Assembly: GCA_963662275.1 (NCBI GenBank)
Contig: OY759316.1
Coordinates: 2,912,001-2,976,000 of the forward strand
Direction: 5' to 3'
DNA: 64,000 nt
Source: Candidatus Cloacimonadales bacterium
GTDB taxonomy: Bacteria; Cloacimonadota; Cloacimonadia; Cloacimonadales; DAONDQ01
Each line of letters starts with the position of its first letter. The first letter of the stretch is position 1. The notes beneath the pieces are model-generated. The model ran no database searches and had not been told where the DNA came from. It saw only the letters and a program-made list of their open reading frames with translations. The position numbers and the translations under genes are program-made. Of the stretch, positions 1-35,100 are shown piece after piece.

Positions 1-3000
1 ATTGGATCGAATTATCCTGCTTACGGTATGGGATTCAGGGGAGCAATTGAATATTGTAATAAGCGTAGCATCATTGAAGGTTTGACACCATGCTACAGTT
101 ACAGTACTTATGGCACAGCTACAAGTAGCTGGCCTTATAATTGGTGTTATGAGGCGAACCATGTCAATCTAAGCTGCAATTGGACAGCCAATGGTTACAG
201 GTTACCGTCTGAAATGGAATGGATGTATGCTGCCAGGGGTGGGAGTTCAACCCATAATTACACTTACAGTGGAAGCAATGATGTAACAGCGGTGGGCTGG
301 TGTTACCCTTATGCGGCGAATACAACACATACAGTTGGTTCTAAAAATTCGAATGAACTTGGGCTATATGATATGACGGGGAACTTGAGTGAATATTGTT
401 GGGATATCTGGTCTGAAACATATCCTAGTGGTCAACAAACAAATCCGCATGGACCTGCTTCTGGTACGACAAGAGTAGTTCGAGGTGGAAATTTCGATTA
501 TGAGCCAGTGTTTTCTACTGTTTCTTATCGAGATTATAGCAGTACTGATGCAGGATCTTCAAACTACGGTTTTCGTCTTTGCAGAACCTCTGTATCCATA
601 CCTATGCAACAGCATTTTACCAGGGTAGAAGGAGGTACTTTCAATAATGGAGCTTCAGATGTTACTTTATCACCTATCCTCCTCGATAAATACGAAGTAA
701 CACAATCATCATACCAGTCAATAATGGGAAGTATCCCCTCTACTTCGTATGGGAACGGTTCGGATTATCCTGTATATGGTGTTTCCTGGTTCAATGCATT
801 TGAATATTGCAATAGAAGAAGTTTGAGTGAAGGTTTGATTCCATGCTACAGTTATCGAACTTACGGAACAAACCCGAACACTTGGCCCACCGGATGGAAT
901 TCTAGTGGTAATAACTTCACATATTTTACCTGTAACTGGGAAGCGAACGGTTATCGTTTACCTACTGAAATGGAGTGGATGTTTGCAGCCAGGGGTGGTA
1001 ATCTTACACAAGGTTATACTTACAGTGGCAGCAATAATATAAATACCGTAGCATGGTATAACTCCAACTCTAGCTATGCAACTCATATTGTGGGATCGAA
1101 AACAGCGAATGAATTGGGGTTATACGATATGAGCGGAAATGTCAATGAATGGTGCTGGGATTCATACGGCAGTTATCCTTACGGACCTCAAACCAATCCT
1201 CACGGAGCAACAGATGGATACTATCAGGATTACCGTATTCTTCGCGGTGGAGGATTTGATGGCTCAAGTACAAGTTGTACAACAAGTTATAGAAGCTACA
1301 ATCTTGCTTATTACACTAACTTGTATGGCTACAACTATGGTTTCCGTATCTGTAGGAATGCACCATCTCAAATCGTTGCTACACCAACTTTTAACATGGC
1401 TGCAGGTATTTATAACAACGCGATTGATGTGAGCATCAGTTGTTCAACACCTGGTGCCAGTATCTACTATACAATCAATAATTCACTTCCTACAGAAAGC
1501 TCGATGCTTTATCAAAACCCGGTAACAATCAGCCAGACTACATACCTCAGGGCAATAGCATTTAAGACAGGATGGACACCTTCAGAGGAAAAACATGAAT
1601 CGTATAACCTGACCATAGCAACTCCTACTTTTTCTGTTGCCGGTGGTGTCTACACAAGTACTCAGACTGTTAATCTACAGACAGTGACAACCGGTACTGA
1701 AATCCGCTATACAACGAATGGCAGTGAACCCACCGAGACATCGTCTCTCTACACAAATCCGCTCAGTATTTTTCAAACTACCACGTTAAAAGTAAAAGCC
1801 TATCGTACTGGCTGGAATCCTTCTTCTACAGCAACTGCCATCTATACAATCAATAACTTAGTCCTTGTCGATGGCGGTACCTTTAATAATGGCACTTCGA
1901 ATGTGACAGTGAGCAGTTTCTATCTGGATAAGTACGAACTAACACAAGCTGCCTATCAGGCTGTGATGGGTACGAATCCTGCTTCAAGCTATGGTGTAGG
2001 CAGTTCATATCCCGTATATTTTGTATCTTGGTTCAATGCTATAGAATATTGTAACAAGAGAAGTATCTCCGAAGGACTGACTCCCTGCTATAGTTACAGC
2101 ACTTATGGCACAAATCCGACAGCATGGCCTTCCGGCTGGAATACCAGTGATGACAACCATACCAACGTGACTTGCAACTGGACAGTAAATGGATACAGAC
2201 TTCCAACTGAAGCGGAATGGGAATTTGCTGCACGAGGCGGTAATTCAACCCATGGTTATACCTATAGCGGTAGTAATACCATTGACGGGGTAGCGTGGTA
2301 TAGTTCAAATTCAAGCAGCATTTCACATGTCATTGGTTCCAAAGCAGCAAATGAGCTTGGTATCTATGATATGAGCGGTAACGTCTGGGAATGGAATTGG
2401 GACATTTATGGCACCTATCCCAGCGGATCGCAAAATAATCCGCATGGAGTAGTCAGCGGGTCTGCCCGTGTGTTACGTGGCGGTTGCTGGGCAGACGTTA
2501 CTGGCGGCTGCGCTAGTTCCTTTCGGAACCATTTCAGTGCGTCTTCCGGCGCTGGCACTATAGGCATCCGCATCTGCAAGAATGTACCTGCTCCGCCAAT
2601 ACAGGAATCCTATGTGTTGGTGGATGGTGGTACTTTCAACAACGGTACATCCGATGTTGCTTTATCATCCTTCTATATGTATAAGACGGAACTCACTCAA
2701 TCTTTATATCAAACTGTGATGGGAACTAATCCAGCATCAGGGTATGGAGTCGGAAACGATTATCCTGTATATAATGTTAACTGGTTTAAAGCCATAGAAT
2801 ACTGTAATAGACGGAGTATTAACGAAGGACTGACTCCGTGTTACAGTTACAGTACATATGGTGGAAATACTGCTAACTGGCCTTCTGGTTGGAACACAAG
2901 TAACTCTAACCATACGAATGTATCTTGTAACTGGACTGCTGATGGATATCGTTTACCTACAGAAATGGAATGGCAATTTGCAGCTCGAGGTGGTAATCTG

Positions 3001-5574
3001 TCACATAATTATACATATAGCGGTAGTAATACTCTCAATTCAGTAGCTTGGAACTCTTCAAACGCACCATACACAACCCATTCTGTGGGAACACTAACTG
3101 CAAATGAACTTGGCATCTATGATATGAGTGGTAATATTTGCGAATGGGTGTGGGATATATACGATAATTATCCAAGCAGTACTCAGATTAATCCACATGG
3201 TCCAACAAGTGGTCTTTACCATGTCCAGCGCGGAGGAAGTTGGGGTTTTTATCCTGAAAATTGTGCAGTTTCATCTCGAGTTGTCAACAATCCCACAGAC
3301 AGTAACTACTTTCTTGGTTTCCGTCTCTGCCGCAGCATCCCAGCACCACCTGTATTGGAAAGCTATCTTCCGGTACCTGGCGGTACTTTCAACAACGGCA
3401 CTTCAGATGTGACAATATCATCTTTCTCTATAAGCAACTATGAAGTGACTCAATATGCCTACAAGTTAGTCATGGGTACAAATCCTTCCTATTTCAGCAA
3501 TGATTTGAACAAACCCGTTGATTCCGTTACATGGTTCAATGCCATTGAATATTGTAATCGGAAAAGCATCAGTGAAGGATTAACTCCGTGTTACACGTAT
3601 ATTGGTTATGGTACAAATCCTTCAAGTTGGCCTTCCGGGTGGAATACCAGTAACGCCAACCATGTTTACATCTCCTGCAATTGGGCAGCATTTGGTTATC
3701 GTCTTCCTACTGAAATGGAATGGCAGTTTGCTGCAAGAGGTGGTACATTAACAAATAATTATTCCTATGCCGGTAGCAACACTATAGATGCTGTTGCCTG
3801 GTATCTCACTAATGCCGGTAATTACACTCACCAGGTTGGAACAAAAGCATCTAATGAACTTAGTCTGTATGATATGAGCGGTAACGTCTGGGAATGGAAT
3901 TGGGATATTTATGGCACATATTCCAGCGGACTGCAAGCTAACCCTCATGGCGTCGTCAGCGGGTCTGCCCGTGTAGTACGCGGCGGTAGCTGGACAGACG
4001 TTCCCGGCGGTTGCACAGTTTCCGGTCGGAACAGCCTCAATGCGACTGACATCGGTCCCAATATAGGTTTCCGTATCTGCAGGATCATGCCAATCCAAAA
4101 TGCATTGATTTCCGTACCTGGCGGAACATTCAATAATGGAACTTCGGATGTGACGATCTCAACATTCTCAATGGAAAAATATGAAACAACTCAAACAGCT
4201 TATCAAGCTGTCATGGGTAATAATCCTTCTTATCGGACGAGTATAGCCAATGGACCTGTCGAGCAGGTTACATGGTACAATGCTATCGAATATTGCAACA
4301 GGAGAAGCATCAGTGAAGGTCTGACTCCCTGCTATAGTTACAGCACTTATGGTACAAATCCTTCGAACTGGCCTGCTAATTGGAATGCAGTTGTTAACAT
4401 TACGAATTTAACGTGCGATTGGGCAACAGCCAATGGTTATCGGTTACCTACTGAAATGGAATGGCAATTCGCTGCCCGTGGTGGTAACCTGACGCATAAT
4501 TACGCATATAGCGGGAGCAATACTGTGACTACGGTAGCTTGGTGTAATTCAAATTCCGGAAGCACAACACATACTGTTGGAGATAAGCTCCCGAATGAGT
4601 TAGGTTTATATGATATGAGCGGTAATGTCATGGAATGGGTATGGGACAAATATGCAAGCACTTATCCCAGCTTTAATCAGTTTAATCCCCATGGACCGAG
4701 CACAGGGGAAGGAAGAATATATAGGGGAGGCGGTTATATGATTTCTGATACCCAATGCCAGGTTACATTACGTAGCTACGATTATGAAGCTAGTTGGTCA
4801 TTTTACATGGGCTTCCGTGTCTGTAAAAATAACCCGAGTTTTGTATTTGTTCCGGGTGGTACGTTTAATAATGGCACTTCTAATGTGACAGTATCAGATT
4901 TCAAGATGGAAAAATGGGAAGTTAGGCAGGCTGACTACCAAGCAGTAATGGGAACGAATCCAGCATATGATTATGGAGTCAGCAGCAATCATCCTGTGCA
5001 CTACGTGTCATGGTTCAATACTGTTGAGTACTGTAATAAACGCAGCATACAGGAGGGATTTACACCTTGTTATAGCTATGGAACTTATGGTACTAATCCT
5101 TCCAGTTGGCCTTCCGGGTGGAATACATCAAATGATAATCATGTGAATGTGAATTGCAATTGGATGGTGAATGGTTATCGTCTTCCCACAGAAGCTGAAT
5201 GGGAATTCGCTGCAAGAGGTAGTAATCTAACCCATAATTATATTTATAGTGGTAGTAATACGATTGATAATATAGGATGGTATCAGTCAAATTCTGGTAA
5301 TACTAGCCATATTGTTGCAACCAAAACTGCCAATGAACTTGGCATTTATGATATGACCGGGAATGTATGGGAATGGTGTTGGGATATATATGATACTTAC
5401 CCAGCAAATTCACAGACGAATCCTCACGGAGCAATTTCAGGGATATACCGTATTAATCGTGGTGGAGCTTTTTCAAATGTGGATTACGGTTGTACAATAG
5501 CCAATAGGAATTACGGATCGGCAACTATTAATCACAATTACTATGGATTCCATATCTGTCAGAATGCACAATGA
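1..5574 (+). CDS. 5'-truncated multi-domain surface protein: 7 FGE-sulfatase (SUMF1-like/CLec-fold) domains plus two ~80-aa chitobiase/Fn3-associated-type repeats; probable DGR target
   Basis: Frame is open from base 1, so the gene starts upstream. Seven repeats of YRLPxExEW..AARGG / NELxxYDMxGN..E..WD / RGG..R..GF(R). Two ATPTF...IxYT..PTE.S.LY.NP repeats follow domain 2. Confidence 0.9.
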   Translation: MGSNYPAYGMGFRGAIEYCNKRSIIEGLTPCYSYSTYGTATSSWPYNWCYEANHVNLSCNWTANGYRLPSEMEWMYAARGGSSTHNYTYSGSNDVTAVGWCYPYAANTTHTVGSKNSNELGLYDMTGNLSEYCWDIWSETYPSGQQTNPHGPASGTTRVVRGGNFDYEPVFSTVSYRDYSSTDAGSSNYGFRLCRTSVSIPMQQHFTRVEGGTFNNGASDVTLSPILLDKYEVTQSSYQSIMGSIPSTSYGNGSDYPVYGVSWFNAFEYCNRRSLSEGLIPCYSYRTYGTNPNTWPTGWNSSGNNFTYFTCNWEANGYRLPTEMEWMFAARGGNLTQGYTYSGSNNINTVAWYNSNSSYATHIVGSKTANELGLYDMSGNVNEWCWDSYGSYPYGPQTNPHGATDGYYQDYRILRGGGFDGSSTSCTTSYRSYNLAYYTNLYGYNYGFRICRNAPSQIVATPTFNMAAGIYNNAIDVSISCSTPGASIYYTINNSLPTESSMLYQNPVTISQTTYLRAIAFKTGWTPSEEKHESYNLTIATPTFSVAGGVYTSTQTVNLQTVTTGTEIRYTTNGSEPTETSSLYTNPLSIFQTTTLKVKAYRTGWNPSSTATAIYTINNLVLVDGGTFNNGTSNVTVSSFYLDKYELTQAAYQAVMGTNPASSYGVGSSYPVYFVSWFNAIEYCNKRSISEGLTPCYSYSTYGTNPTAWPSGWNTSDDNHTNVTCNWTVNGYRLPTEAEWEFAARGGNSTHGYTYSGSNTIDGVAWYSSNSSSISHVIGSKAANELGIYDMSGNVWEWNWDIYGTYPSGSQNNPHGVVSGSARVLRGGCWADVTGGCASSFRNHFSASSGAGTIGIRICKNVPAPPIQESYVLVDGGTFNNGTSDVALSSFYMYKTELTQSLYQTVMGTNPASGYGVGNDYPVYNVNWFKAIEYCNRRSINEGLTPCYSYSTYGGNTANWPSGWNTSNSNHTNVSCNWTADGYRLPTEMEWQFAARGGNLSHNYTYSGSNTLNSVAWNSSNAPYTTHSVGTLTANELGIYDMSGNICEWVWDIYDNYPSSTQINPHGPTSGLYHVQRGGSWGFYPENCAVSSRVVNNPTDSNYFLGFRLCRSIPAPPVLESYLPVPGGTFNNGTSDVTISSFSISNYEVTQYAYKLVMGTNPSYFSNDLNKPVDSVTWFNAIEYCNRKSISEGLTPCYTYIGYGTNPSSWPSGWNTSNANHVYISCNWAAFGYRLPTEMEWQFAARGGTLTNNYSYAGSNTIDAVAWYLTNAGNYTHQVGTKASNELSLYDMSGNVWEWNWDIYGTYSSGLQANPHGVVSGSARVVRGGSWTDVPGGCTVSGRNSLNATDIGPNIGFRICRIMPIQNALISVPGGTFNNGTSDVTISTFSMEKYETTQTAYQAVMGNNPSYRTSIANGPVEQVTWYNAIEYCNRRSISEGLTPCYSYSTYGTNPSNWPANWNAVVNITNLTCDWATANGYRLPTEMEWQFAARGGNLTHNYAYSGSNTVTTVAWCNSNSGSTTHTVGDKLPNELGLYDMSGNVMEWVWDKYASTYPSFNQFNPHGPSTGEGRIYRGGGYMISDTQCQVTLRSYDYEASWSFYMGFRVCKNNPSFVFVPGGTFNNGTSNVTVSDFKMEKWEVRQADYQAVMGTNPAYDYGVSSNHPVHYVSWFNTVEYCNKRSIQEGFTPCYSYGTYGTNPSSWPSGWNTSNDNHVNVNCNWMVNGYRLPTEAEWEFAARGSNLTHNYIYSGSNTIDNIGWYQSNSGNTSHIVATKTANELGIYDMTGNVWEWCWDIYDTYPANSQTNPHGAISGIYRINRGGAFSNVDYGCTIANRNYGSATINHNYYGFHICQNAQ

Positions 5575-5732: not shown

Positions 5733-8700
5733 ATGTCTAATATCAGTTTTATCGAGTATGAGCCGCAATATGCAAAAGCAGTTGCCGATATGTGGAACAG
5801 GAGCAGCAGCGTCTGGAATGGACGAATCTTCAATAGCAGTGAAAAAAAAGTCCTTCAGGAAGAAGAGAATTCAACTTACCTGAATTTGTATCTTGCTGTC
5901 ATCGATTCATTGGTCATTGGCTATGCAAAGTTTTCTCCATACCCTGAAGAAAAGGGAGTTTCCTACATTGATATGTTGGGTGTAGATCCTGAGTGGCATG
6001 GTAAAGGCATCGGGAAAGTTTTAGTGCAGAAATGTGTGCTCAGGGCTGCTGAGTTAGGATATGATAGAATTGATCTCTTTACCTGGCCTGGTAATACCAA
6101 AGCGGTTCCTCTCTACAAGAAGTGTGGCTTTTTCTGGGAAAAGATGGAAATGCAAGTGACTCATCTAATGAACTTTATTCCTGGATTACTCAACAATGAA
6201 CTGATCAAGCCTTATTTTGATTACTTTGACTGGTATCTTGATTCTAAGAGAGAAATAGAGATAAAGCCTGACGGAAGATGTGATAATGGCTTTGAAATCT
6301 ATGATTATATATGGGAAAAAGAAGATAAAAAACTCCAGATTTCTTTTGAAAAAAGAGGAAGAGGTATCATTGCTATCACAACTTCTGATTTTCATATTTC
6401 CACTTATACTCCTGAAGCGAAACCAGTATTCGGAACAGAATACCCTATCACATACAGGCTGGAATCCTTTATGGACGAACCAATTGAAGTATTTCTCCAG
6501 GGAGAGAATGATCGTGAAATTGACTTTACTTTTGCTCATTCACAGAGCTTAGTTAATAAATTAGAATTGAATGCAGGTTTCTATCTGAATTCAATCACAA
6601 AAGAACTAACTGAATGGGATACTTTACCCAGTGTAGTAACAAAACTAAACATTATGGGTAAATCCGTAAGGATGAAAACAGGGTTGAAGATTCAATATCC
6701 GCTAGATACTACGTTTGCGATGGAAAAAAGCTTAGTGACACCCAGCCATGATCAAGTTCTTTATCTGAATGTACAGAATTGTTTTTCATGCAAATGCTTA
6801 TATCGGATAGATTTTGAGAATGAAGAACCGCTGCAATTGGAAAGAAAGAGTTTTGAAATTAACCTCAAACCACGCGAAAGGAGTTATATTCCCATCAAAT
6901 TCACAACTCCCGAGGCTTGTATCATCTATCCGACATTAAAGATAACAGCCCTGCCGGAAAACGGAAAAGAAGTTCAATTTAACCGGCAAATTCATTACCA
7001 AATCTACACTCTCACATCCAAAGCACAGAAAGTTTTACCTAATCAGTACATTTTGCTCAATGGTAGGATGAGTGTCAGTTTTGATCAATTGGGAAACAAG
7101 AATTGGGGAATGTTTCAAATTATGCAGGGTATGGGTTTCAATCTTTGCCCTCCAAGAGTTGGAAAGCCATATTCTGAAGAGTTTGACCAGGAACTACCCT
7201 ATGATGTACAAGTGAATGATCTCGGTGTGGCGAATGAGTTAGTCATGTATTTCCGTTCCAAAGAGTTTCAAGGAGTTGAGTTTGCTTATGTTTACAAGCT
7301 GTATCCAACCGGGCTGATGGAATTTCATATCAGGATCATCAATCTGCCAATCCAGGAACAGAATGTCTTTGCGAAACTAAGGTTTTGTATTTATGGTGAA
7401 AATCTCGTTTGTGAACTGGGTGGAAGGTTGATCAAATTAGAAAACGATATGCCTGGATTAGATACAAATAATCTGGATGGTGAAGAGTTTAGTAAAAACT
7501 GGGCATTTTCCAAATATGATGATTGTACAAGTGCCATGATTTGGGATAAGAATTGGCATGCATGTATCGACAGATGGTTTGTTTGTTGGGATATTAACTT
7601 AAGCGATTATTATGCTCGAGGTTTACAAGAAACAGAGCCGGTTCTTCTTTACATTGATGTCTTTCAAAATGCTTTTGAAGTGAGAAATGTTGCTGAAGAA
7701 TGTAATAAAAAAGTGGAACCTATGTATCCATCTCTTGAGCTTGTTATTAACAATGAGGATCCATTCCCTGGTCATGCATATGAAGTGAAACTCATCCAGC
7801 ACCAGACTGAAAACTTGAGAGGAAGCTTCATTTTAAGTTCTTCTACAAATGCAATATTACGTGAAGAAATCAAGCATAAATTTGAGGATGAAGTACGCGA
7901 AATCAAATGGACAGTTGAAGCCCATTCAAAGAAACCAATGGAGGTGATCAACTGTGAAGCCAGGTTGCCACTCTATACAGTAGAGCGAAAGCAAATTGTT
8001 TTTCATGAAAAAGGTGAAGTCAGATTCGCTGAAACTAGTGATATTAACGATACACTCCTTGTTGCCGATAATGGCATCATTCAAATCACAACCGCCAAGG
8101 ATGCACGAATACCCAATTTGCTCTCTCTTATTCATGAGGGAAGGGAGTGGCTGGATAATAGTTATCCTGAATATGCTCCTAAATCAAATTACAATCCTTA
8201 TCCTGGGGGAATGACCATAACACCTTGGCAGCTTAGGATCATGAATCTGATGAATGAAACGCACGAAATAAAGAAGGCTAGCCTGTTAGATCAGTGGGGG
8301 CATAAGTGGGAAGGATTGGAAATGAGATCCTCAATTACTAATTTCGACCCTTTACAAGGTTTGGTATATGTACAATATTATCTGATGAGACCTGGTGTAC
8401 CAATTCTTGCAATCACAACCAAGATCATCACAGATACCGGTCATGCCGAATACATACCCTTTTGTTTGAATATGTTTTTCAAACCAAATGGTGAAATACA
8501 GAATAGCAGTATCGACATTCCCTGTGAAGATAATCGTTGGCATATGCTTCATGCTGGGAGTGAGGCTTTTTATCTTCGGAATTCATATCGGCATGTAAAG
8601 ATAAAAAACATGAAATCAGATTATATGCTCAATATCTTAAGTTTGGGGAAATCCTATCACGATATTCACATTGATCCGCAAATTCTCAGGGATAAGTGTT

Positions 8701-8819
8701 ATCTGTACAGTGATTTTGCAAAAACAGTACCTTCTATGTTACGACCTATGTTTATCATATTCTCCGGATCAGATATTGAACATGAATGGCTGTATTCGCT
8801 GCTGAACACAAGGTTTTAG
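5733..8819 (+). CDS. Large protein with N-terminal GNAT acetyltransferase domain
   Basis: VDPEWHGKGIGK acetyl-CoA motif and N..AVPLYKKCGF. About 870 aa of C-terminal sequence is unassigned. GGAG RBS. Confidence 0.8.
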   Translation: MSNISFIEYEPQYAKAVADMWNRSSSVWNGRIFNSSEKKVLQEEENSTYLNLYLAVIDSLVIGYAKFSPYPEEKGVSYIDMLGVDPEWHGKGIGKVLVQKCVLRAAELGYDRIDLFTWPGNTKAVPLYKKCGFFWEKMEMQVTHLMNFIPGLLNNELIKPYFDYFDWYLDSKREIEIKPDGRCDNGFEIYDYIWEKEDKKLQISFEKRGRGIIAITTSDFHISTYTPEAKPVFGTEYPITYRLESFMDEPIEVFLQGENDREIDFTFAHSQSLVNKLELNAGFYLNSITKELTEWDTLPSVVTKLNIMGKSVRMKTGLKIQYPLDTTFAMEKSLVTPSHDQVLYLNVQNCFSCKCLYRIDFENEEPLQLERKSFEINLKPRERSYIPIKFTTPEACIIYPTLKITALPENGKEVQFNRQIHYQIYTLTSKAQKVLPNQYILLNGRMSVSFDQLGNKNWGMFQIMQGMGFNLCPPRVGKPYSEEFDQELPYDVQVNDLGVANELVMYFRSKEFQGVEFAYVYKLYPTGLMEFHIRIINLPIQEQNVFAKLRFCIYGENLVCELGGRLIKLENDMPGLDTNNLDGEEFSKNWAFSKYDDCTSAMIWDKNWHACIDRWFVCWDINLSDYYARGLQETEPVLLYIDVFQNAFEVRNVAEECNKKVEPMYPSLELVINNEDPFPGHAYEVKLIQHQTENLRGSFILSSSTNAILREEIKHKFEDEVREIKWTVEAHSKKPMEVINCEARLPLYTVERKQIVFHEKGEVRFAETSDINDTLLVADNGIIQITTAKDARIPNLLSLIHEGREWLDNSYPEYAPKSNYNPYPGGMTITPWQLRIMNLMNETHEIKKASLLDQWGHKWEGLEMRSSITNFDPLQGLVYVQYYLMRPGVPILAITTKIITDTGHAEYIPFCLNMFFKPNGEIQNSSIDIPCEDNRWHMLHAGSEAFYLRNSYRHVKIKNMKSDYMLNILSLGKSYHDIHIDPQILRDKCYLYSDFAKTVPSMLRPMFIIFSGSDIEHEWLYSLLNTRF

Positions 8820-18168: not shown

Positions 18169-20061
18169 GGAGATGTCCCGAAACTAAATGATAGAAAAAT
18201 AGCAACTATTAAATATTAATCATATTACTTGACATATTGTTATAGGGTGTATTGTTGCCTTTAAAAACTAAGCATAGAGAGAATTATGAATTTCAGAGAG
18301 CACAATCCGAATCAGGGGACACTCTATGGACTTAATATTGAAGAGAGAATACCTCCCCAGCACATGGTTCGTTATGTTAACGATGTCGTTGAGCAACTGG
18401 ACTTATCTGAGCTATATACAAGATACTCTGATGAAGGTACACCTGCTTATCATCCCAAGATGATGTTGAAGATCATTGTGTATGCCTATATCAATGGTAT
18501 TTATACCTGTCGGAAGATAGCTAAGGCTGTTCGGGAGAACATCAATTTTATCTGGCTGGCAGGAGAACAGGAACCTGATTTCAGAACGATCAACACCTTT
18601 GCCTGGACTAAGTGTTCTGATATTCTTATTGATGTATTTTATCAGGTAGTACTGAAAGCATCATCATTAGGATATCTTGATCTCGACACCTGTTTTGTTG
18701 ACGGGACGACGATTCACGCAAATGCCGGCAAGAATTCCTACATCTGGAAAAGCAATGCGCTTCGTTATCAGGAACTGGTCAAGACACGAGTTGAGGGATT
18801 GTTTAAAAAGATCGAGGAATATAATCAGGAAGAGCAACAGCAATATGGAACCGCTGATCTTCTTGAGCTTGGTGAGCAATTGCATGCGGTTGAATCAGAG
18901 AAAACTGCTACAGTCGCATCTGAACAGATCAGAGATAGACTGGTCTCAGCAGAAAACAAGCTGAAAGAAGCAATGTCCCGACTACAGAAAAATCATCCGT
19001 CAGATACTCGGGCTATCAAGAAAATCAAATCTCTTTTGCGCGAAATCTCCAAATCAAAGAGCAATGATATAACTAAGCTGGAGAAATATGAGCAACAGCT
19101 TGAGATAATTGGAGAAGGACGCAGCAGCACATCCAAGACTGATAATGATGCCACATTTATGCGATTGAAAAATGGACAGCTGGCACCGGGTTATGTTGCC
19201 AGTATCGGAACTTCAGAGCAATTTGTCACAGGCATTCACTTATTCAATATCCCTAAAGAAACCGTTGAATTTCCCAATCTCATGGAGCAAATGCATGATG
19301 AATTGGGACAATATCCTACCGACGTTGTTGGAGATGCTGCCTATGGCACTGCGCTGAATTTGAATTATGCTGCTGAAAAAGAGATAACAAGCTATCTCAA
19401 GACCCAGGATTATAAGAGAGATTATCGGGACTCTCTTCTGACAGGCTTCAGCTATGATGAGGAGCATGATGAGTGGGTCTGTCAATTTAATCGGAGACTG
19501 GTCAAAATCAAGGAAGAAGAGACAGAGAAGAACGGTCCGAAACGAATCGTGAAAACCTATATATGTAATGACTGCAGAGAATGTCCTCACAATAAAAAGT
19601 GTATTCCCTACAAGGATAAAACACATAAATCACTGACCTACGATCCTCATATAGCTCCACTAAAACGTCAGACCGTCAATAATCTGCTTTCTGAAAAAGG
19701 CGACAAGCTGAGAAAGCAAAGAGGCATCGAACCGGAGGCTGTATTTGCTTTCATGAAGTGGAACAGGAAGTTTGAGAGATTTACTGTCCGTTCATTGAGA
19801 AAATGCAAGGAACAGTTATCCCTCCTCTTTTTAGGACATAATATAGGGAAAATGTTTCTGCACTTACAAAATACTGAAGGAAAAGCCTGATGAAGACTCT
19901 TCCTACCAGAATTCAAACATGAATTAGGTAAATATTACTCCGTTTTTCCTTGTCTTTGCATCGCTTTTCGGAAAATATTGAGTAATTTAGTTTGCCTGTA
20001 AAAACAATCACATATTTTACAACAGAAGAAAATAAAATCATGCTAGTTTCGGGACATCTCC
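18169..20061 (+). mobile_element. IS1182-family insertion sequence
   Basis: Perfect 18-bp terminal inverted repeats GGAGATGTCCCGAAACTA (18169-18186 / 20044-20061) around a transposase gene. Confidence 0.92.
18286..19890 (+). CDS. IS1182-family DDE transposase
   Basis: YHPKMMLKI..YAY (DUF772-like), PDFRTI, FVDGTTIHANA, TDNDATFM, DAAYG, IEPEAVF motifs. Confidence 0.93.
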   Translation: MNFREHNPNQGTLYGLNIEERIPPQHMVRYVNDVVEQLDLSELYTRYSDEGTPAYHPKMMLKIIVYAYINGIYTCRKIAKAVRENINFIWLAGEQEPDFRTINTFAWTKCSDILIDVFYQVVLKASSLGYLDLDTCFVDGTTIHANAGKNSYIWKSNALRYQELVKTRVEGLFKKIEEYNQEEQQQYGTADLLELGEQLHAVESEKTATVASEQIRDRLVSAENKLKEAMSRLQKNHPSDTRAIKKIKSLLREISKSKSNDITKLEKYEQQLEIIGEGRSSTSKTDNDATFMRLKNGQLAPGYVASIGTSEQFVTGIHLFNIPKETVEFPNLMEQMHDELGQYPTDVVGDAAYGTALNLNYAAEKEITSYLKTQDYKRDYRDSLLTGFSYDEEHDEWVCQFNRRLVKIKEEETEKNGPKRIVKTYICNDCRECPHNKKCIPYKDKTHKSLTYDPHIAPLKRQTVNNLLSEKGDKLRKQRGIEPEAVFAFMKWNRKFERFTVRSLRKCKEQLSLLFLGHNIGKMFLHLQNTEGKA

Positions 20062-29179: not shown

Positions 29180-32100
29180 ATGAAAGCATCAAAGTTCAAA
29201 GTTTTTATGCTGACAATTCTTATCATCATGTTAGCTGGCAGCCTATTTGGTGAGACCATCTATAATGAAACGATCGGAAGCGCAGGCACAACCACAGGAG
29301 TCAGCTCTTATACCGGTTGGCTGAATTACGGTACGGTAACCTACACCGGAACAACTGATGCCAGAAACACCTATACTTCCACTGGTGATTATACCGGTGC
29401 CAGTGGTGGCGGCAATGTGTATTTTGTCGGTGGTTCCTCAGACTATTTGCAGATAGCCGGTATCAATACTTTAGGCTATACAAACATCAGGCTGGCTTGT
29501 GGAATTTACAAAACCAATTCCAACACAAATACATCCAATGCTGAAAACGGTTCCAATTTCCAGATCAGGTATAGCACTGACGGAACTACCTGGTCATCTC
29601 CTTTAGCCTACACCTTGCCTACAGGCGCAGGTACAGATGCAACGTATTTTTGGATTACCTTTAACGAAGCTTTGCCCGCAGTGGCAAGTTTGTATCTGAA
29701 ATTCACCGATGTGGGTGCATCTGAAGCTATTCACTTCAGGCTGGATGACATTACTCTCACAGGTACCACCTTCAATCTCTACAATGAAACAGTGGGAGTT
29801 GGAGCAAATTACACTCCCATATCTAGTTATTCCGGATGGTCAAACACATCGCCGATTTCCTATGTGGGCACTTCAACTGTAGATAATTCCTACACATCTG
29901 CTGGTTCTTATTCCAATGCCACAGGCACAGGAAATGTCTATATATCAAACGGTACTTACTTCCAGATCGAAGGACTCAATACAGCAGGTTATAGTGATCT
30001 CTGGCTTTCTTTCGCTGTGCATAAAGACACTGGTTCAGAAACGGGTACAAATCTGAAAGTGGAAGCGTATGATGGTTCAACTCTTACCGGGACATACTAT
30101 GTTAATATTCCCACTAGTTCCGGAGATATCTGGATCAATCGGACAATTAGCACTGCCCTTCCTGCAACAGCAACTCTTATACTGAAGTTTTCAGATATAC
30201 ATGCCAGCAGGGACTTCAGGATCGATGATATCAGGATTCGGGCTGGAATCAAAACGCCAGATATATCCTCGCCTATATGTTTAGGTAAATTGAATACTAA
30301 TGCTCTGCTGGGAGCAAGCATTACTGCATTTAACAACAGTAATGCCACGGAAAGAGGTATCTACTACTCTACAACCAGCGGTTTTGCCGATGGTACTGGG
30401 ACCAAAGTGTCAGTAACAGGAACATTCAGTGTTACAGGTGCGTTCACTATAAATGTCACAGGGCTAACTGAAAATACCGTTTATTATTATAAAGGCTTTG
30501 CTACAAATGCTGCCGGAAGCAGTTATACTAGTCAGGCAACTTTTACAACTAGGAATATCTATCCCCCAACATTAACCCTGCCTACTGCTACGGATATAAC
30601 CAATACCACCGCAGTCCTGGGAGCAAGCATCACAGCTCTGAATAATGACAATGCCTTCGCCAAGGGTATCGTCTACTCCACAATAGATGGCTTTTCCGAA
30701 AACACTGGGACTTTTGTGAGCACATCCTGCTATATCAGTCAACCCACTGCTTTTACCATGAATGTTACAGGGCTGTCGCCAAATACAGTGTACTATTACA
30801 AAGGCTTAGCAGTAAATAATGCCGGTGAAGGGTTTACAGCGCAGGCATCTTTTACAACGGCAAATGTCGTGCCGACTCTAACACTTCCTACAGCCATCAG
30901 CATCACTAATACAACGGCGGTACTTGGAGCCAGCATTACTGCCCTGAACGGCAGCACAGCAACTGAAAGAGGCATCTACTACTCTACCACCAGCGGTTTT
31001 GCTGATGGCACAGGCACCAAGGTCTCTACTACAGGAACATACAGTTCCACCGGCGCATTCACAATGAATGTAACAGGGCTGGTTGTAAATACTGTTTATT
31101 TTTATAAAGGCTTTGCCACTGATGATGCGGGTACCGGATATACTGCCCAGGCTACATTTACCACTACCAATATCCTGCCTCCAACGGTAACGTTGCCTAC
31201 TGCTGCCAGCATTACGAATACAACTGCAGTTTTGGGGGCAAGTATTACGGCATTTAACGGCAGTTATGTAACAGAAAGAGGCATCTACTACTCAACGACA
31301 AGTGGTTTTGCCGATGGTTCCGGCACTAAGGTCTCTGAAACAGGGACATTTATCAGTACTGGTGCTTTTACCCTTAATGTTACCGGTTTATCAGCAAATA
31401 CGGTGTACTACTATAAGGGTTTTGCCACGAATGATACCGGTACTCAATTTACTACCCAGGAAACTTTCACAACTACCAATGCCTTACCACCGACAGTAAC
31501 GTTGCCTACTGCTGCAAGCGTAACGAATACAACAGCCATCCTGGAAGCTAACATCAGTTCTCTTAATAATGGTAATGTAACTGAAAGAGGTATCTTCTAT
31601 TCAACAACGAGTGGTTTTGCCGATGGCACCGGAACAAAAGTGTCTGAAACAGGTACGTTCAGTTCCACCGGAGTTTTTACAATCAATGTTACCGGTTTGT
31701 CCCCAAATACTTTGTACTTTTACAAAGGTTTCGCCACTAATGCGGGTGGAAGTGGATACTCCGCTCAGGCTTCCTTTACCACTACCAATGTCTTCCCGCC
31801 AACGGTAACATCACCTACAGCCACGGGGATTACATATACATCAGCGGTTCTGGGTGCAAATATTACTGCCCTGAACGATAGCCTTGTCACTGAAAGAGGC
31901 TTCTACTACTCCACTACCAGCGGCTTTGCAGATGGCACTGGGACCAAAGTATCGGAAACAGGGACATTCAGTACCACCGGGGCTTTCACATTTAATGTCA
32001 CGGGCTTGACCACTAGTACCAGGTATTATTACAAGGGCTTTGCAACAAACGCTTTTGGAACAAGCTATACTACACAAGGTATGTTCTACACCGGAGCAAT

Positions 32101-35100
32101 AATTGGGTGTGATGGTAATGTATCTATGACCTGTACTGTGGGCCAGAGAGCAAATTTGAGTTTTACGATAGATTATTATGGACTTACACCAGATCCAGGT
32201 ACTTTAACAATATCATCTTATGGTAATTCCGATGAGTTTTTTAATAATTATTTCTCGACATGGCAATATGAAAATTCAAGTAGCCTGCTTACAGTACCTT
32301 TTACCGATGGATCACATTTTAGGAAAACAATTTATGTGACATTTACCCCCAGTCAAGTCTTGTTATACGGGGGTATAGTTTCAAACAAAATAACCGTCAG
32401 TGATGGTGCGACGACAGTAATCTATACATGCGTTATAACTGTCCAAGGATTACCGGTTGTTGGTAACCCGACGATTTTTGGCATAACACCGACTAGTGCA
32501 GGTATTAAAGGTGTATGTATGAGGGATGGGAATTCCCAGATAACTTCCGCAGGCTTTTTTGATTTTGATCACAATTATACGCTTCCAGCCCATGGAACAG
32601 GTTTTTACGAAACTGAGATATTTTATCTACCTACTACGACCAATCATCAAATTTGTTTTTATGCCACAAATAGTATTGGGACAACCTATTCAAATTGGAT
32701 ATCATTTAATTCTGCACCTAATTTAAGCTTAACAGTGCTTACAGGAAATTTTGATGATACTCCCGTTGGAACTTCAAAAGATGAAGTTTTAGCTGTTAGA
32801 GGGAACTCCCTGACACCGCCAGAAGGAAATATCATTATCACTGCACCGCCTGGATTTCAGCTTTCTGAGACAGAAGGCACAGGTTTTGTATCAAGTATTA
32901 CAATTCCCTACAATTCTTATGGTCTAGGTTATGGCGGAGTTAGCAGTCAAATCTATATGCGGTTTACTCCACTCAACGCAATGAGTTATAACGACACTAT
33001 CTCCGTAGTAGGCGCAGGAATTATATATAAAGCTAATGTGTATGGCAATGGAATAGATATTCCGATTCTCACATTGCCCACTGCAACTAATGTAACAAAT
33101 ACAACTGCTGTGCTGGGAGCGAATATCAGTTCTCTCTACAATGGAAATGCCCTTGAACGAGGTATCTATTACTCCACCACCAGGGGCTTTACAGATGGCA
33201 CAGGCACCAAGGTCTCTACTACAGGAACATACAGTACGACAGGTGCTTTCACCATTAATGTGACCGGTCTATCACCCAATACGGTGTATTACTACAAAGG
33301 CTTTGCCAGAAATGCTGCGGGCAGTGGTTACACCAGTCAAGACAGCTTGACTACAACCAATGTCTTCCCACCTACAGTTTCATTACCTACTGCTACCAGT
33401 ATTACAAATACAACAGCAATACTGGGAGCGAATATTAGTTCATTTAATAACAGCAACGCTACAGAACGGGGTATCTACTACTCTACAACCAGGGGCTTTG
33501 CTGATGGTGCAGGTACAAAAGTATCCGAAACTGGCACATTCACTTCTACGGGGACTTTCACCATTAGTGTCACTGGTCTGTCACCCAATACGGTGTATTA
33601 TTACAAAGGCTTTGCCACCAACTCAGCCGGTAGTGGTTACACAGCACAGGACAGCTTGACGACCACTAATGTCTTCCCTCCGACGGTCGCATTGCCTACT
33701 GCAACAAGTATCACGAATACAACGGCTGTGCTGGGAGCGAATATCAGTTCACTTAATAACAGCAACGCTACGGAAAGAGGTATTTACTATTCAACAATTG
33801 ATGGTTTTGCAGACAGTACCGGTACGAAAGTATCTGAAACAGGGACATTCAGCTCAACAGGGGCTTTTACCTTTGATGTTTCAGGTCTGTCGCCCAATAC
33901 AGTGTACTATTACAAAGGCTTTGCTACTAATGAAGTCGGCAGAGGCGATACTTCTCAAGCTACTTTTACCACCACCAATGTCTTCCCACCGACAGTCTCA
34001 TTGCCTACTGCAACAAGTATCACGAATACAACGGCTGTGCTGGGAGCGAATATCAGTTCACTTAATAACAGCAACGCTACAGAACGGGGTATCTACTACT
34101 CTACAACCAGGGGCTTTGCTGATGGTACAGGTACAAAAGTGTCTGAAACAGGATCATTCAGTTCAACAGGTGCTTTCACCATTATTGTTACCGGACTGTC
34201 ATCCAATACCGTGTATTACTACAAAGGGTTTGCCACCAATGCTGCGGGTAGCGGATACACCAGTCAGGACAGCTTGACCACCACCAATATATTCCCACCG
34301 ACTGTAACATTGCCTACCGCTGCCGGCATTACTTATTCAGCAGCTTTGCTGGGAGCGAATATCAGTTCGTTTAACAACAGTGATGCGACAGAACGGGGTA
34401 TCTACTACTCCACAACCGACGGCTTTGCAGACGGAACTGGAACAAAATTGTCCGAAACAGGTACATTTACTTCTACTGGGGCTTTCACCATTTGTGTCAC
34501 TGATCTGTCGCCCAATACCGTGTATTATTACAAAGGCTTTGCCACTAATTCTGCCGGTACCGGTTATTCCCCCCAGGCGACTTTTACCACATATTACCAG
34601 CCTTTCGCCGGTATCTATACGATTGATAACACCTTGCCAACTGGCGGAACTAACTTTGCTTCCTTCACATCTGCAGTCAATGCACTGAACGCAGCCGGAA
34701 ACACGGCATCGGTGACTTTCCATGTGACTTCCGGGCAGACTTTTGTGGAAAACGTACCTCCAATTACCCTGAATGCTGTATCAGAAAAAGCCGTAACCTT
34801 TATAAAACAGGGTGAGCTGGCTAATCCGGTGATCAAAGCCGGTATCGGGAAAAACATGTCTGACGATGCTATCGTCACCTTCAAAGGCTGCGATTATATC
34901 ACTTTTGACGGTATTGATCTGCAAGAAAACACAGGGGTGAATACTAACGTTACAACCCAAGCTGAGTACGGCTTCAGTATCCTCAATAACGGTAATGATG
35001 ATGGGGCTCAACACAACACAATCCAGAACTGCACGGTCACTTTGGCATATGCAACTACTTACACAACCAAAGGATTCTATGTATATGGCAACGGTGCGAA

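Follow-up and report, generated by a model that had tools for sequence, protein, structure and literature searches.

The question raised by this locus is whether two internal segments of one very long protein were diversified by a DGR and, if so, whether that retroelement is still at work. Both segments lie near the 5' end of the window (the whole stretch of 64,000 nucleotides that was analysed), in two FGE/CLec modules hereafter called domains 3 and 5. Comparison of their sequences with those of paralogues and of related genomes indicates that they are probably fossil variable regions (VRs) of a DGR since lost from the lineage.

Architecture of the multi-module protein

The protein had originally been predicted to contain seven CLec/FGE domains. 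Within the window, PF03781 covers seven stretches of the ORF (E 4.5e-245). The ORF crosses the 5' end of the window, however, and once the frame was extended upstream, tblastn recognised ten FGE-sulfatase/CLec modules in its 3,334 codons, so that domains 3 and 5 became modules 6 and 8 (Table 1). The modules are separated by CHB_HEX_C_1/Fn3_assoc spacers, and each is most similar to different stand-alone genes. A clear footprint of diversification is retained by two modules of the chain (6 and 8). The giant protein may act as an extracellular multivalent binder.

Concerning the fold, the best PDB match by sequence to domain 5 is TvpA, a DGR variable protein of Treponema denticola (2Y3C, E 6.6e-37), whereas true FGEs such as 2Q17 and 1Y1E, which share the Pfam family PF03781 and the overall fold with the chain modules, match it far more weakly (about 1e-10). 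As in DGR targets of this fold, PF03781 is present in every module and the variable block forms the last 42 codons of the domain. This hypervariable block corresponds to what we take to be the part of FGEs that holds the catalytic cysteines. When 50,697 phage records were searched by tblastn with domain 5, no match reached 42% identity, and most of the matches were to Microcystis phages.

Table 1. Features of the giant ORF, with positions in the window
Feature	Position	Strand	Remarks
Giant ORF, 3' 1,857 codons	1..5574	+	Window part of the 3,334-codon frame; start 4,427 bases upstream of the window
Module 5 (domain 2)	616..1356	+	No significant footprint; non-adenine mismatch 29/57
CHB_HEX_C_1 + Fn3_assoc spacer between modules 5 and 6	1399..1845	+	Spacer type also present before FGE in the relatives' DGR targets with a single module
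FGE/CLec module 6 of 10 (domain 3)	1867..2580	+	Genome 2913867-2914580, tblastn
Probable fossil DGR variable region of domain 3, 42 codons	2455..2580	+	Compared with relatives' TR; AAY third bases kept 12/15
Domain 3 VR, 5' 18 codons	2455..2508	+	Mutated states in common with domain 5, 3958-4011
Domain 3 VR, 3' 24 codons	2509..2580	+	Diverged from domain 5, 4012-4083; contains the nine-codon run
Junction 3' of domain 3	2581..2625	+	Conserved target 3' flank absent; 7/30 bases, chance level
Module 7 (domain 4)	2608..3333	+	Weak, older footprint; non-adenine mismatch 21/68, AAY third bases 10/15
FGE/CLec module 8 of 10 (domain 5)	3361..4083	+	tblastn; PDB comparison
Probable fossil DGR variable region of domain 5, 42 codons	3958..4083	+	Compared with relatives' TR; AAY third bases kept 12/15
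Junction 3' of domain 5	4084..4128	+	Conserved target 3' flank absent; 8/30 bases
Module 9 (domain 6)	4108..4827	+	Footprint weak or absent; non-adenine mismatch 24/60, third bases 5/15
Module 10 (domain 7), C-terminal	4837..5562	+	No footprint; non-adenine mismatch 36/73, third bases 5/15

Comparison of the two variable segments

The gapless alignment from which the original prediction started was reproduced: segments 2452-2577 and 3955-4080 are both 126 bases long and in frame, and they differ at 14, 9 and 8 first, second and third codon positions, i.e. the 23 and 8 differences that had been counted by hand. In the run of nine codons singled out at the time, eight codons differ while the third bases agree in all nine (C, T, G, T, C, C, T, C and T), as described. 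When the limits are shifted by one codon (2455-2580 vs. 3958-4083), the 42 VR codons differ at 14, 10 and 8 positions, vs. 57, 41 and 89 for the other 199 aligned codons (Fisher p = 0.02). Counted from the same alignment, third-position differences occur in 3 of the 17 codons changed at positions 1-2 and in 5 of the 25 unchanged there. This equal rate means that positions 1-2 of the VR codons are near saturation, with silent sites only about 20% diverged.

The two VRs are not independent draws. Of the 17 template-adenine sites in codons 1-18, 11 are mutated identically in the two domains and 3 differ, whereas of the 24 such sites in codons 19-42, 15 differ (Fisher p = 0.0096). The mutated states common to codons 1-18 point to copying between the two domains, or from a common source, after diversification. 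Silent-site identity is also raised in residues 161-199 (21/28), and the first 160 residues are unrelated copies with 62% protein identity, placed on different branches of a FastTree tree of FGE domains, whose groupings are indicative only since it carries no support values. Non-adenine divergence is similar over both halves of the VR (5/37 vs. 9/48), and for this reason it does not separate gene conversion from partial re-homing.

Reconstruction of the template and cassettes in related genomes

A template was inferred from the third bases characteristic of each column in about 15 paralogous VRs of this genome, and its 24-base core, written as an IUPAC pattern, was searched in this genome and in 201 related genomes sampled from the phylum. 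No match was found in this genome with up to two mismatches. Among the related genomes, the core occurs without mismatch at 26 places in 22 of them, and with up to two mismatches in 56, vs. three matches for a reversed-pattern control. Six loci with such matches were retrieved, and in each of them the motif, or a close variant of it, directly follows an RT-like ORF of 332-363 aa. Pfam recognised RVT_1 in the three ORFs tested, and bAvd, HRDC and FGE-sulfatase in the single locus tested. The canonical order of the relatives' cassette is FGE-type target, HRDC, bAvd, RT and template repeat (TR), and the core is part of its TR.

The TR and VR of one relative show 28 differences over 133 bases, of which 27 fall on template adenines; in another, the TR and its cognate C-terminal VR differ at 19 of 41 adenines and at none of the 84 other bases. 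Judged by these patterns, the relatives' cassettes are live. A DGR RT (E <= 1e-50) is carried by 47 of 201 genomes of the order, and by neither the single genome of the same genus nor any of the eight genomes of family f2. The cassettes resemble the present locus in the type of target module, in the CHB_HEX_C-like spacer ahead of the target and in the TR sequence; they differ in that RT, bAvd, HRDC and TR are all missing from this genome.

Adenine bias and conservation of third bases

Compared with the relatives' TRs, which come from other families of the order and not from this lineage, domain 3 is mismatched at 30 of 40-42 template adenines and at 15-16 of 83-86 other bases (30/40 vs. 16/83: Fisher 3e-9), and domain 5 at 22 of 40-42 adenines and 15 of 84-86 others (22/40 vs. 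15/84: Fisher 4e-5). This test is partly confounded, as template adenines are codon positions 1-2 of binding loops, which could also vary under ordinary selection. As anticipated, mismatches to the best template are concentrated at adenines, which make up about one third of the template and account for 30 of 45 mismatches (67%) in domain 3 and 22 of 37 (59%) in domain 5. These proportions are below the 75% of mismatches at adenines that Roux et al. give as criterion for a secondary target (PMC8144416). The best fossil (genome 3951858, minus strand) is changed at 24 of 41 adenines vs. 4-5 of 84 other bases.

As for the 15 AAY codons of the template, two stand-alone genes have kept every third base and domains 3 and 5 have kept 12 each. 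Pooled over ten domains, 126 of 150 are kept; when the C/T pattern is shuffled, the mean is 82, and only 9 of 10,000 rounds give as many as 126. The choice between C- and T-ending codons is fixed for each column, contrary to the genome's preference for T, and the sole all-adenine codon of the template is the one whose third base varies too. Together with the TvpA structure as nearest match and a predicted template that proved to be the relatives' TR beside a DGR RT, these data bear out the reading of the pattern as a trace of adenine-specific mutagenesis by a DGR, acting on AAY codons in a CLec fold of the FGE type.

Synonymous codon identity among the ten domains is 0.48, 0.48, 0.60 and 0.71 in residues 1-80, 81-160, 161-199 and 200-241, vs. 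0.44, 0.45, 0.46 and 0.40 for all other pairs; these figures are descriptive and no independent test, since the subset (about 10-15 domains) was picked from pairs ranked by C-terminal silent identity. Within the ten-domain subset, the part covered by the TR (residues 200-241) is thus more recent as judged by silent sites, yet its protein sequence is more divergent. When all 44 full FGE domains (46 domains in the genome) are taken together, silent sites are saturated, with an identity that stays level over the length of the domain, and fourfold codons in variable columns show only a small genome-wide excess of C/T endings (0.70 vs. 0.65; C alone, 0.39 vs. 0.25). Most FGE copies are therefore without a readable footprint.

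Change at non-adenine template positions amounts to about 17-19% in domains 3 and 5 vs. 5-13% in the freshest stand-alone paralogues, so the last writing of the two domains lies far back. Over the whole genome the fossils are graded, from about 5% to about 50% decay.

Search for DGR machinery in the genome

The genome consists of one contig of 4.38 Mb and is 99.97% complete. PF00078 identified 18 RTs in it, none of the DGR type: a group II maturase domain was found in one representative of each of three RT families, multi-copy or single, and the eighteenth RT, located in an 896-codon frame, is read as a putative Cas6-RT-Cas1. Queries made of the relatives' DGR RTs matched only these 18 genes, at 24-31% identity and never at E <= 1e-50, and tblastn searches of the genome with bAvd and HRDC proteins of two relatives gave nothing at E < 0.1. 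Four PF05635 four-helix-bundle genes were considered as Avd and discarded, none of them being near any RT or FGE gene.

A search of the genome for a template gave the same picture. An nhmmer profile of 15 VRs hit 55 places, none of them adenine-rich (maximum 0.33 A), and its strong matches all fall in FGE frames or truncated copies. Template candidates collected by blastn, nhmmer and the motif pattern turned out to be coding VRs elsewhere in the genome, plus three truncated copies (615471, 1701162 and 1953295); the fragment 615351-615692 adjoins a transposase-like ORF and is not Asn-rich. BLASTn of both segments against the genome, which had been suggested as a means of finding a non-coding template repeat near an RT or avd gene, thus returned none. 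Of the two options in the original prediction, a remote DGR that diversifies the domains now finds no support, given the lack of TR and DGR RT in a complete genome and the decay at non-adenine positions. The other, diversification in the past through older events, agrees with a TR that is matched in relatives, decayed positions and a cassette gone from here. In the genome of the same genus, the best DNA matches are 65-70% identical over a few hundred bases, plus one piece of 73 bases at 85%, too little for a comparison of orthologues.

Present-day variation was looked for in assembled contigs. Those of four runs from two studies cover positions 2373-2741 or more, and those of two runs cover 3879-4350, with no other letter in either case; for runs X4 and X5, contig cover is listed for parts of the stretch only. 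No variant letter is listed inside either VR in these contigs, which speaks only weakly against ongoing variation, because rare variants are lost from contigs and the assembly itself may derive from one of the two studies. On the whole, it is quite likely that the variation in domains 3 and 5 is real but frozen, and not ongoing.

Internal position and origin of the variable regions

The 3' flank of the target is conserved in the live VRs of four relatives, and 14 stand-alone genes of this genome retain it at 12-26 of 30 bases, whereas this IMH-like sequence is matched at only 7 of 30 bases after domain 3 and 8 of 30 after domain 5. The conserved flank presumably is a functional IMH. It contains the stop codon of the stand-alone genes and hence cannot lie in an internal linker; at junction 2581..2625, the last sense codons of a stand-alone gene are kept up to the site of the stop codon, where the linker begins. 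About twelve stand-alone paralogues that retain the flank of live targets are fresher fossils. In four relatives possessing both a DGR RT and multi-FGE proteins, the 12 internal VR-like regions include no live target; their non-adenine mismatch is 22-51%, vs. 0/84 at a cognate C-terminal VR. The proposal that several internal domains were diversified thus stands as regards the DGR history of domains 3 and 5; as regards writing while they were internal, the missing flank and the relatives' internal regions speak against it.

The proposed history starts with an ancestor whose cassette would have consisted of FGE-type target, HRDC, bAvd, RT and TR, as in the relatives of the same order. Error-prone reverse transcription of the TR would have changed template adenines, and the cDNA would have overwritten the last 125 bases or so of FGE/CLec modules, so that positions 1-2 of AAC/AAT codons were randomised and third bases left intact. 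The lineage would then have lost RT, accessory genes and template, leaving VRs that are now probably frozen and drifting. For modules 6 and 8, we lean slightly towards VRs gained as C-terminal ends of separate genes, or copied from such ends, before the chain was joined.

The VRs could instead have been rewritten in place, inside the multi-module gene while the lineage still had its DGR, to give a multivalent variable binder that was frozen later. We regard this as unlikely, and as equally doubtful its detailed course, in which the C-terminal third of one module was copied to the other and partial homing then replaced the 3' 24 codons. The division of the VRs into a shared 5' part and a differing 3' part, the raised silent-site identity of residues 161-199 and the unrelated first 160 residues all fit such a course. 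According to work on Bordetella phage BPP-1, DGR cDNA integration reportedly proceeds with 3'-to-5' polarity, with which copying between modules 1.5 kb apart followed by 3'-only rewriting would agree. Targets with two or three VRs are also on record (PMC11661182). Yet a gene-conversion tract over residues 161-218 or so would give the same pattern with no DGR involved, the similar non-adenine divergence of the two halves does not discriminate, both junctions lack the flank, and all 12 internal regions of the relatives are decayed. If rewriting in place were true, the chain would be a stockpile of independently diversified sites, on which the retroelement acted internally without the usual 3' flank; a DGR able to write internal modules would bear on the understanding and engineering of DGR targeting rules.

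Two further explanations would do without a lost DGR of the lineage. Duplication of FGE modules, positive selection on ligand-binding loops and codon bias would involve no retroelement at all: binding loops often abound in Tyr, Asn, Ser, Asp and Gly, many such residues have only C/T-ending codons, the genome-wide signal at fourfold codons is weak and silent sites are saturated. Against this, a template derived from third bases alone is, base for base, the TR of the relatives' live cassettes, the C or T endings run column by column against codon preference, the one template codon made up of adenines only is also the one with a variable third base, and silent-site identity peaks exactly where protein identity is lowest; this very improbable explanation is already close to refuted. 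A DGR acting in trans from a phage, a plasmid or a strain variant outside the assembly, and still diversifying the domains, has in its favour that targets far from their cassette are known (PMC4891356). It is improbable in the extreme, considering the completeness of the single-contig genome, the missing flank, the 17-19% non-adenine change that a recent rewrite would have reset in both VRs and, weakly, the invariant contigs. The loss of a formerly resident DGR thus remains the preferred reading.

Significance and comparison with known systems

In a genome now without the element, third-base patterns alone suffice to read past DGR activity and to reconstruct the lost template, and the graded series of fossils could serve to date the loss. 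DGR-diversified binding modules evidently outlast their mutator and end in very large multi-module proteins. For annotation, the 'FGE-sulfatase' proteins of this order are better taken as TvpA-like variable binders than as enzymes.

Targets with several VRs have been reported, four genes with two VRs and three with three, 87% of VRs lying at the end of the gene (PMC11661182). The giant chain is alike in having more than one DGR-type VR in one polypeptide; it differs in that those VRs were called against a TR of the same genome, whereas here the TR is absent and the VRs are decayed and were possibly written before the chain was joined.

Leftover targets after DGR loss are already described: according to Nimkulrat et al. 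2016 (PMC4891356), Treponema denticola strains without the core DGR keep leftover target genes. These share with the present fossils the FGE-type CLec fold, the disappearance of RT and TR, VRs that differ from a relative's TR mostly at adenines, many paralogous targets per genome and a lysine (AAA) template codon that is mutated too. In T. denticola, the loss distinguishes strains within a single species and the VRs are fresh, whereas here the whole sampled family (two genomes) is without a DGR and the template comes from other families. Unlike those of T. denticola, the fossils of this genome are graded in age, and two of them lie inside a ten-module protein instead of at a C-terminus.

Genomic setting of the two variable regions

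The two variable regions (VRs) under study lie in domains 3 and 5, i.e. modules 6 and 8 of the ten FGE-sulfatase (PF03781) modules carried by one giant open frame and joined directly or via CHB_HEX_C_1 or Fn3_assoc spacers. The host genome, a single 4.38 Mb contig (99.97% complete), possesses about 46 FGE-type modules, the majority of which form the C-terminal domain in proteins 300-900 residues long. Directly after the giant gene comes a protein with an N-terminal GNAT acetyltransferase domain, its other ~890 residues having no Pfam match. The window also carries a DDE transposase gene (DDE_Tnp_1_6, DUF772) and two more giant ORFs, the latter with only weak Fn3, PhoD_N or Pur_ac_phosph_N-like matches and a common short TP6A_N match near residue 589-607, which is probably spurious.

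Coordinates of the features in the window and in the whole contig (genome)
Feature	Position	Strand	Remarks
Giant open frame	starts 4,427 bases before the window, ends at window 5574	+	3,334 codons, extended in the whole genome
Domain 3 VR	window 2455-2580		42 codons
Domain 5 VR	window 3958-4083		42 codons
GNAT protein	window 5733-8819	+	1,028 residues
DDE transposase	window 18286-19890	+	534 residues
Further giant ORF	window 29180-40672	+	3,830 residues
Further giant ORF	window 41064-48569	+	2,501 residues
RT-domain frame	genome 3092721-3095408	-	896 codons, ~117 kb past the window end
Truncated FGE/VR fragment	genome 615351-615692	+	
Truncated FGE/VR fragment	genome 1953295-1953383	+	
PF05635 genes	genome 4057914, 1305744, 1265377, 4195650		
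Stand-alone gene, end	genome 3951858	-	deviating subset; fresher fossil; shortened flank
Stand-alone gene, end	genome 3646020	-	deviating subset; fresher fossil
Stand-alone gene, end	genome 3762541	+	deviating subset; fresher fossil
Stand-alone gene, end	genome 4326437	+	deviating subset; fresher fossil
Stand-alone gene, end	genome 460377	+	deviating subset; shortened flank
Stand-alone gene, end	genome 2269205	-	deviating subset; shortened flank
Stand-alone gene, end	genome 134772		deviating subset
Stand-alone gene, end	genome 4247363		deviating subset

Silent-site pattern and inferred template

The gapless alignment of the two 126-base segments (window 2452-2577 and 3955-4080) was reproduced, with 14, 9 and 8 differences at the three codon positions, matching the count of the original prediction, as was its run of nine codons, eight of which are changed while all third bases are identical. 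The VRs themselves differ by 14/10/8, against 57/41/89 in the remaining 199 codons (Fisher p = 0.02). Between the two segments, third bases differ at a rate of ~20% whether the codon is changed (3/17) or unchanged (5/25), so that the excess difference is specific to positions 1-2.

When all 44 full-length domains (of the 46) are taken together, silent sites show saturation and no trend along the domain, and the signal at fourfold codons is weak. A subset of ~10-15 domains deviates, in that the C-terminal third is closer at silent sites, yet less alike in protein, than the rest. This subset includes domains 3 and 5 as well as the stand-alone genes (single FGE genes outside the giant chain) marked in the table. 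Synonymous codon identity by successive region is 0.48, 0.48, 0.60 and 0.71 in the subset vs. 0.44, 0.45, 0.46 and 0.40 for all other pairs. In its codon alignment, the variable columns have free bases 1-2 and a third base fixed per column, C in some and T in others, contrary to the genome's usual habit of ending Asn, Asp and Tyr codons in T.

A hypothetical template was built by reading each variable codon as AAC or AAT, and its 24-base core was used as an IUPAC search pattern. The host genome has no match at up to two mismatches and four at three mismatches, two of which are VRs. Among the 201 genomes of the phylum sample, 56 carry the core at up to two mismatches and 22 carry it exactly, in 26 places; the reversed-pattern control gave three matches.

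Live cassettes in relatives

In all six loci fetched around core matches, a reverse transcriptase (RT)-like ORF of 332-363 residues is closely followed on its 3' side by the motif or a slight variant of it. The order in five of them is an FGE-type target with a C-terminal VR, a ~150-residue gene, a ~112-residue gene, the RT and the template repeat (TR); locus L033 holds a cassette fragment only, among the ORFs listed. Pfam recognised RVT_1 in the three RTs tested and, on one locus, bAvd (1.6e-18), HRDC (1.4e-15) and FGE-sulfatase. Over the 133 bases of one TR/VR pair there are 28 differences, 27 of which fall at template adenines; a second pair differs at 19 of 41 adenines and at none of the 84 other bases. 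Judged from their sequence, these cassettes of diversity-generating retroelements (DGRs) are live. Their targets are single modules after the same spacer type, sometimes in tandem genes. Of 201 genomes of the order, 47 have a DGR RT (E ≤ 1e-50 to a relative's RT); at this threshold, none was found in the one other genome of the host genus or in eight genomes of one family (f2).

The relatives' TR agrees almost base for base with the inferred template, and its sole all-adenine codon coincides with the only variable column in which the third base is free as well. The reference for the adenine test was a relative's 124-base TR, which has 40 adenines, or whichever of 14 TRs fitted best. Mismatches proved to be concentrated at template adenines in both VRs: 30/40 adenines vs. 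16/83 other bases are changed in domain 3 (Fisher 3e-9) and 22/40 vs. 15/84 in domain 5 (4e-5), the freshest stand-alone fossil (a VR with an old DGR footprint) having 24/41 vs. 4-5/84 (1e-10). With the best TR, the figures are 30/41-42 vs. 15/83-86 for domain 3 and 22/42 vs. 15/86 for domain 5. As for the 15 AAY template codons, positions 1-2 are not AA in 12-14, and the third base is kept in 12 in each of the two domains and in all 15 in two stand-alone genes. Over ten pooled domains, 126 of 150 third bases are kept, for a shuffle mean of 82 (126 is reached in 9 of 10,000 shuffles). A DGR origin of both segments is well supported, and the footprint originally read from the sequence is borne out by adenine bias, third-base retention and the presence of the predicted template as TR in relatives. 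In the giant protein's remaining eight modules, the footprint is weak or absent, with 31-51% non-adenine mismatch to the relatives' TR.

Search for a cassette in the host genome

That a remote DGR diversifies these domains at present, one of the two alternatives originally proposed, is unsupported, the host genome having no DGR RT, bAvd, HRDC or TR. All 18 RVT_1 matches are accounted for: representatives of the 443-, 450- and 397-residue RT families have a group II intron maturase domain, and the remaining match is an 896-codon frame whose ends, read by eye, look like Cas6 and Cas1, as in a Cas6-RT-Cas1 fusion. The relatives' DGR RTs match only these 18 (24-31% identity), their bAvd and HRDC sequences have no host match at E below 0.1, and no adenine-rich VR copy was found in the genome. 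Contigs of four runs from two studies contain no variant letters inside either VR, a weak indication since contigs hide rare variants; the contig differences listed fall in conserved blocks where paralogues cross-map. Four stand-alone PF05635 four-helix-bundle genes (E 1e-30 to 4e-43) were rejected as DGR accessories, being unlinked to RTs or FGE genes and not of the bAvd type of the relatives' DGRs.

Fresher fossils than the two VRs lie elsewhere in the genome, in about a dozen single-module FGE genes with 5-13% non-adenine mismatch, up to 15/15 AAY third bases kept and the conserved target 3' flank still present; together they make up a graded decay series. After several stand-alone genes, the flank breaks off early and gives way to copies of a dispersed repeat, palindromic and REP-type in look, which suggests that insertions took place on what used to be the cassette side of these targets. 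Two truncated FGE/VR fragments, the longer of which adjoins a 425-residue transposase-like ORF, look like pseudogene relics of one-time targets.

Origin of the internal modules

In four relatives, the live VRs are followed by a conserved 3' flank that opens with the final codons and the stop, and which is kept in 14 stand-alone host genes (12-26 of the first 30 bases) and is at chance level after domain 3 (7/30) and domain 5 (8/30). At its end, domain 3 retains the final sense codons that a stand-alone gene has before its stop; where the stop would be, a linker takes over. A tree of residues 1-199, built without support values, does not unite the modules of the giant protein in one clade: domain 3 clusters with stand-alone genes and module 10, and domain 5 with the final module of a different multi-module protein. 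Over residues 1-160, domain 3 is 76-84% identical in protein to several stand-alone fossils vs. 61-62% to domain 5. Multi-FGE proteins are also present in relatives of the order, chains of 2-5 modules being widespread, e.g. at the fetched loci L085 (G119:C36, 1,113 aa), L088 (G105:C53, 1,767 aa) and L067 (G142:C196, 777 aa), the last with an internal module of fossil-like footprint (25/40 adenines vs. 17/76 other bases). Seven open frames from four DGR-RT-bearing genomes, four of these frames being complete multi-module proteins, were checked for internal VR-like regions, and none of the 12 found is a live target (22-51% non-adenine mismatch).

The missing flank, the end of domain 3, the relatives' single modules, the tree and the 0/12 score favour a capture of modules whose VRs would already have been written. 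The observation behind the original prediction is real and the DGR origin of the VRs is well supported; that internal domains were diversified in place is unproven.

Of the 17 adenine sites in VR codons 1-18, 11 have a mutated state common to domains 3 and 5, and of the 24 in codons 19-42, 15 differ between them (Fisher 0.0096 between the two parts). Just upstream of the shared part, their silent identity is raised (21/28). The shared 5' sites and this identity argue that, once diversification had taken place, the C-terminal third of one domain was copied over that of the other. A later rewriting of the 3' part, after the copying, would have the polarity expected of DGR homing and gives a counter-hint to capture; alternatively, the copied tract ended mid-VR, the data fitting both equally.

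Comparison with known systems

The open-access literature yielded no account of DGR fossils within a protein of many modules, and the portions available of Wu et al. (PMC5758913) and Roux et al. (PMC8144416) hold no description of fossil VRs. An excerpt of PMC11661182 mentions that Cloacimonadota DGRs fall into one cluster and reports seven targets that have 2-3 VRs each, the gene end being the site of 87% of VRs. The same kind of phenomenon as in the present host is described, in the text available of PMC4891356, for Treponema denticola, where leftover targets in genomes without RT or TR were identified because they differ, with an adenine bias, from the TR that related strains have. The host case is a new, well-preserved example of this known phenomenon, with one unusual architectural twist.
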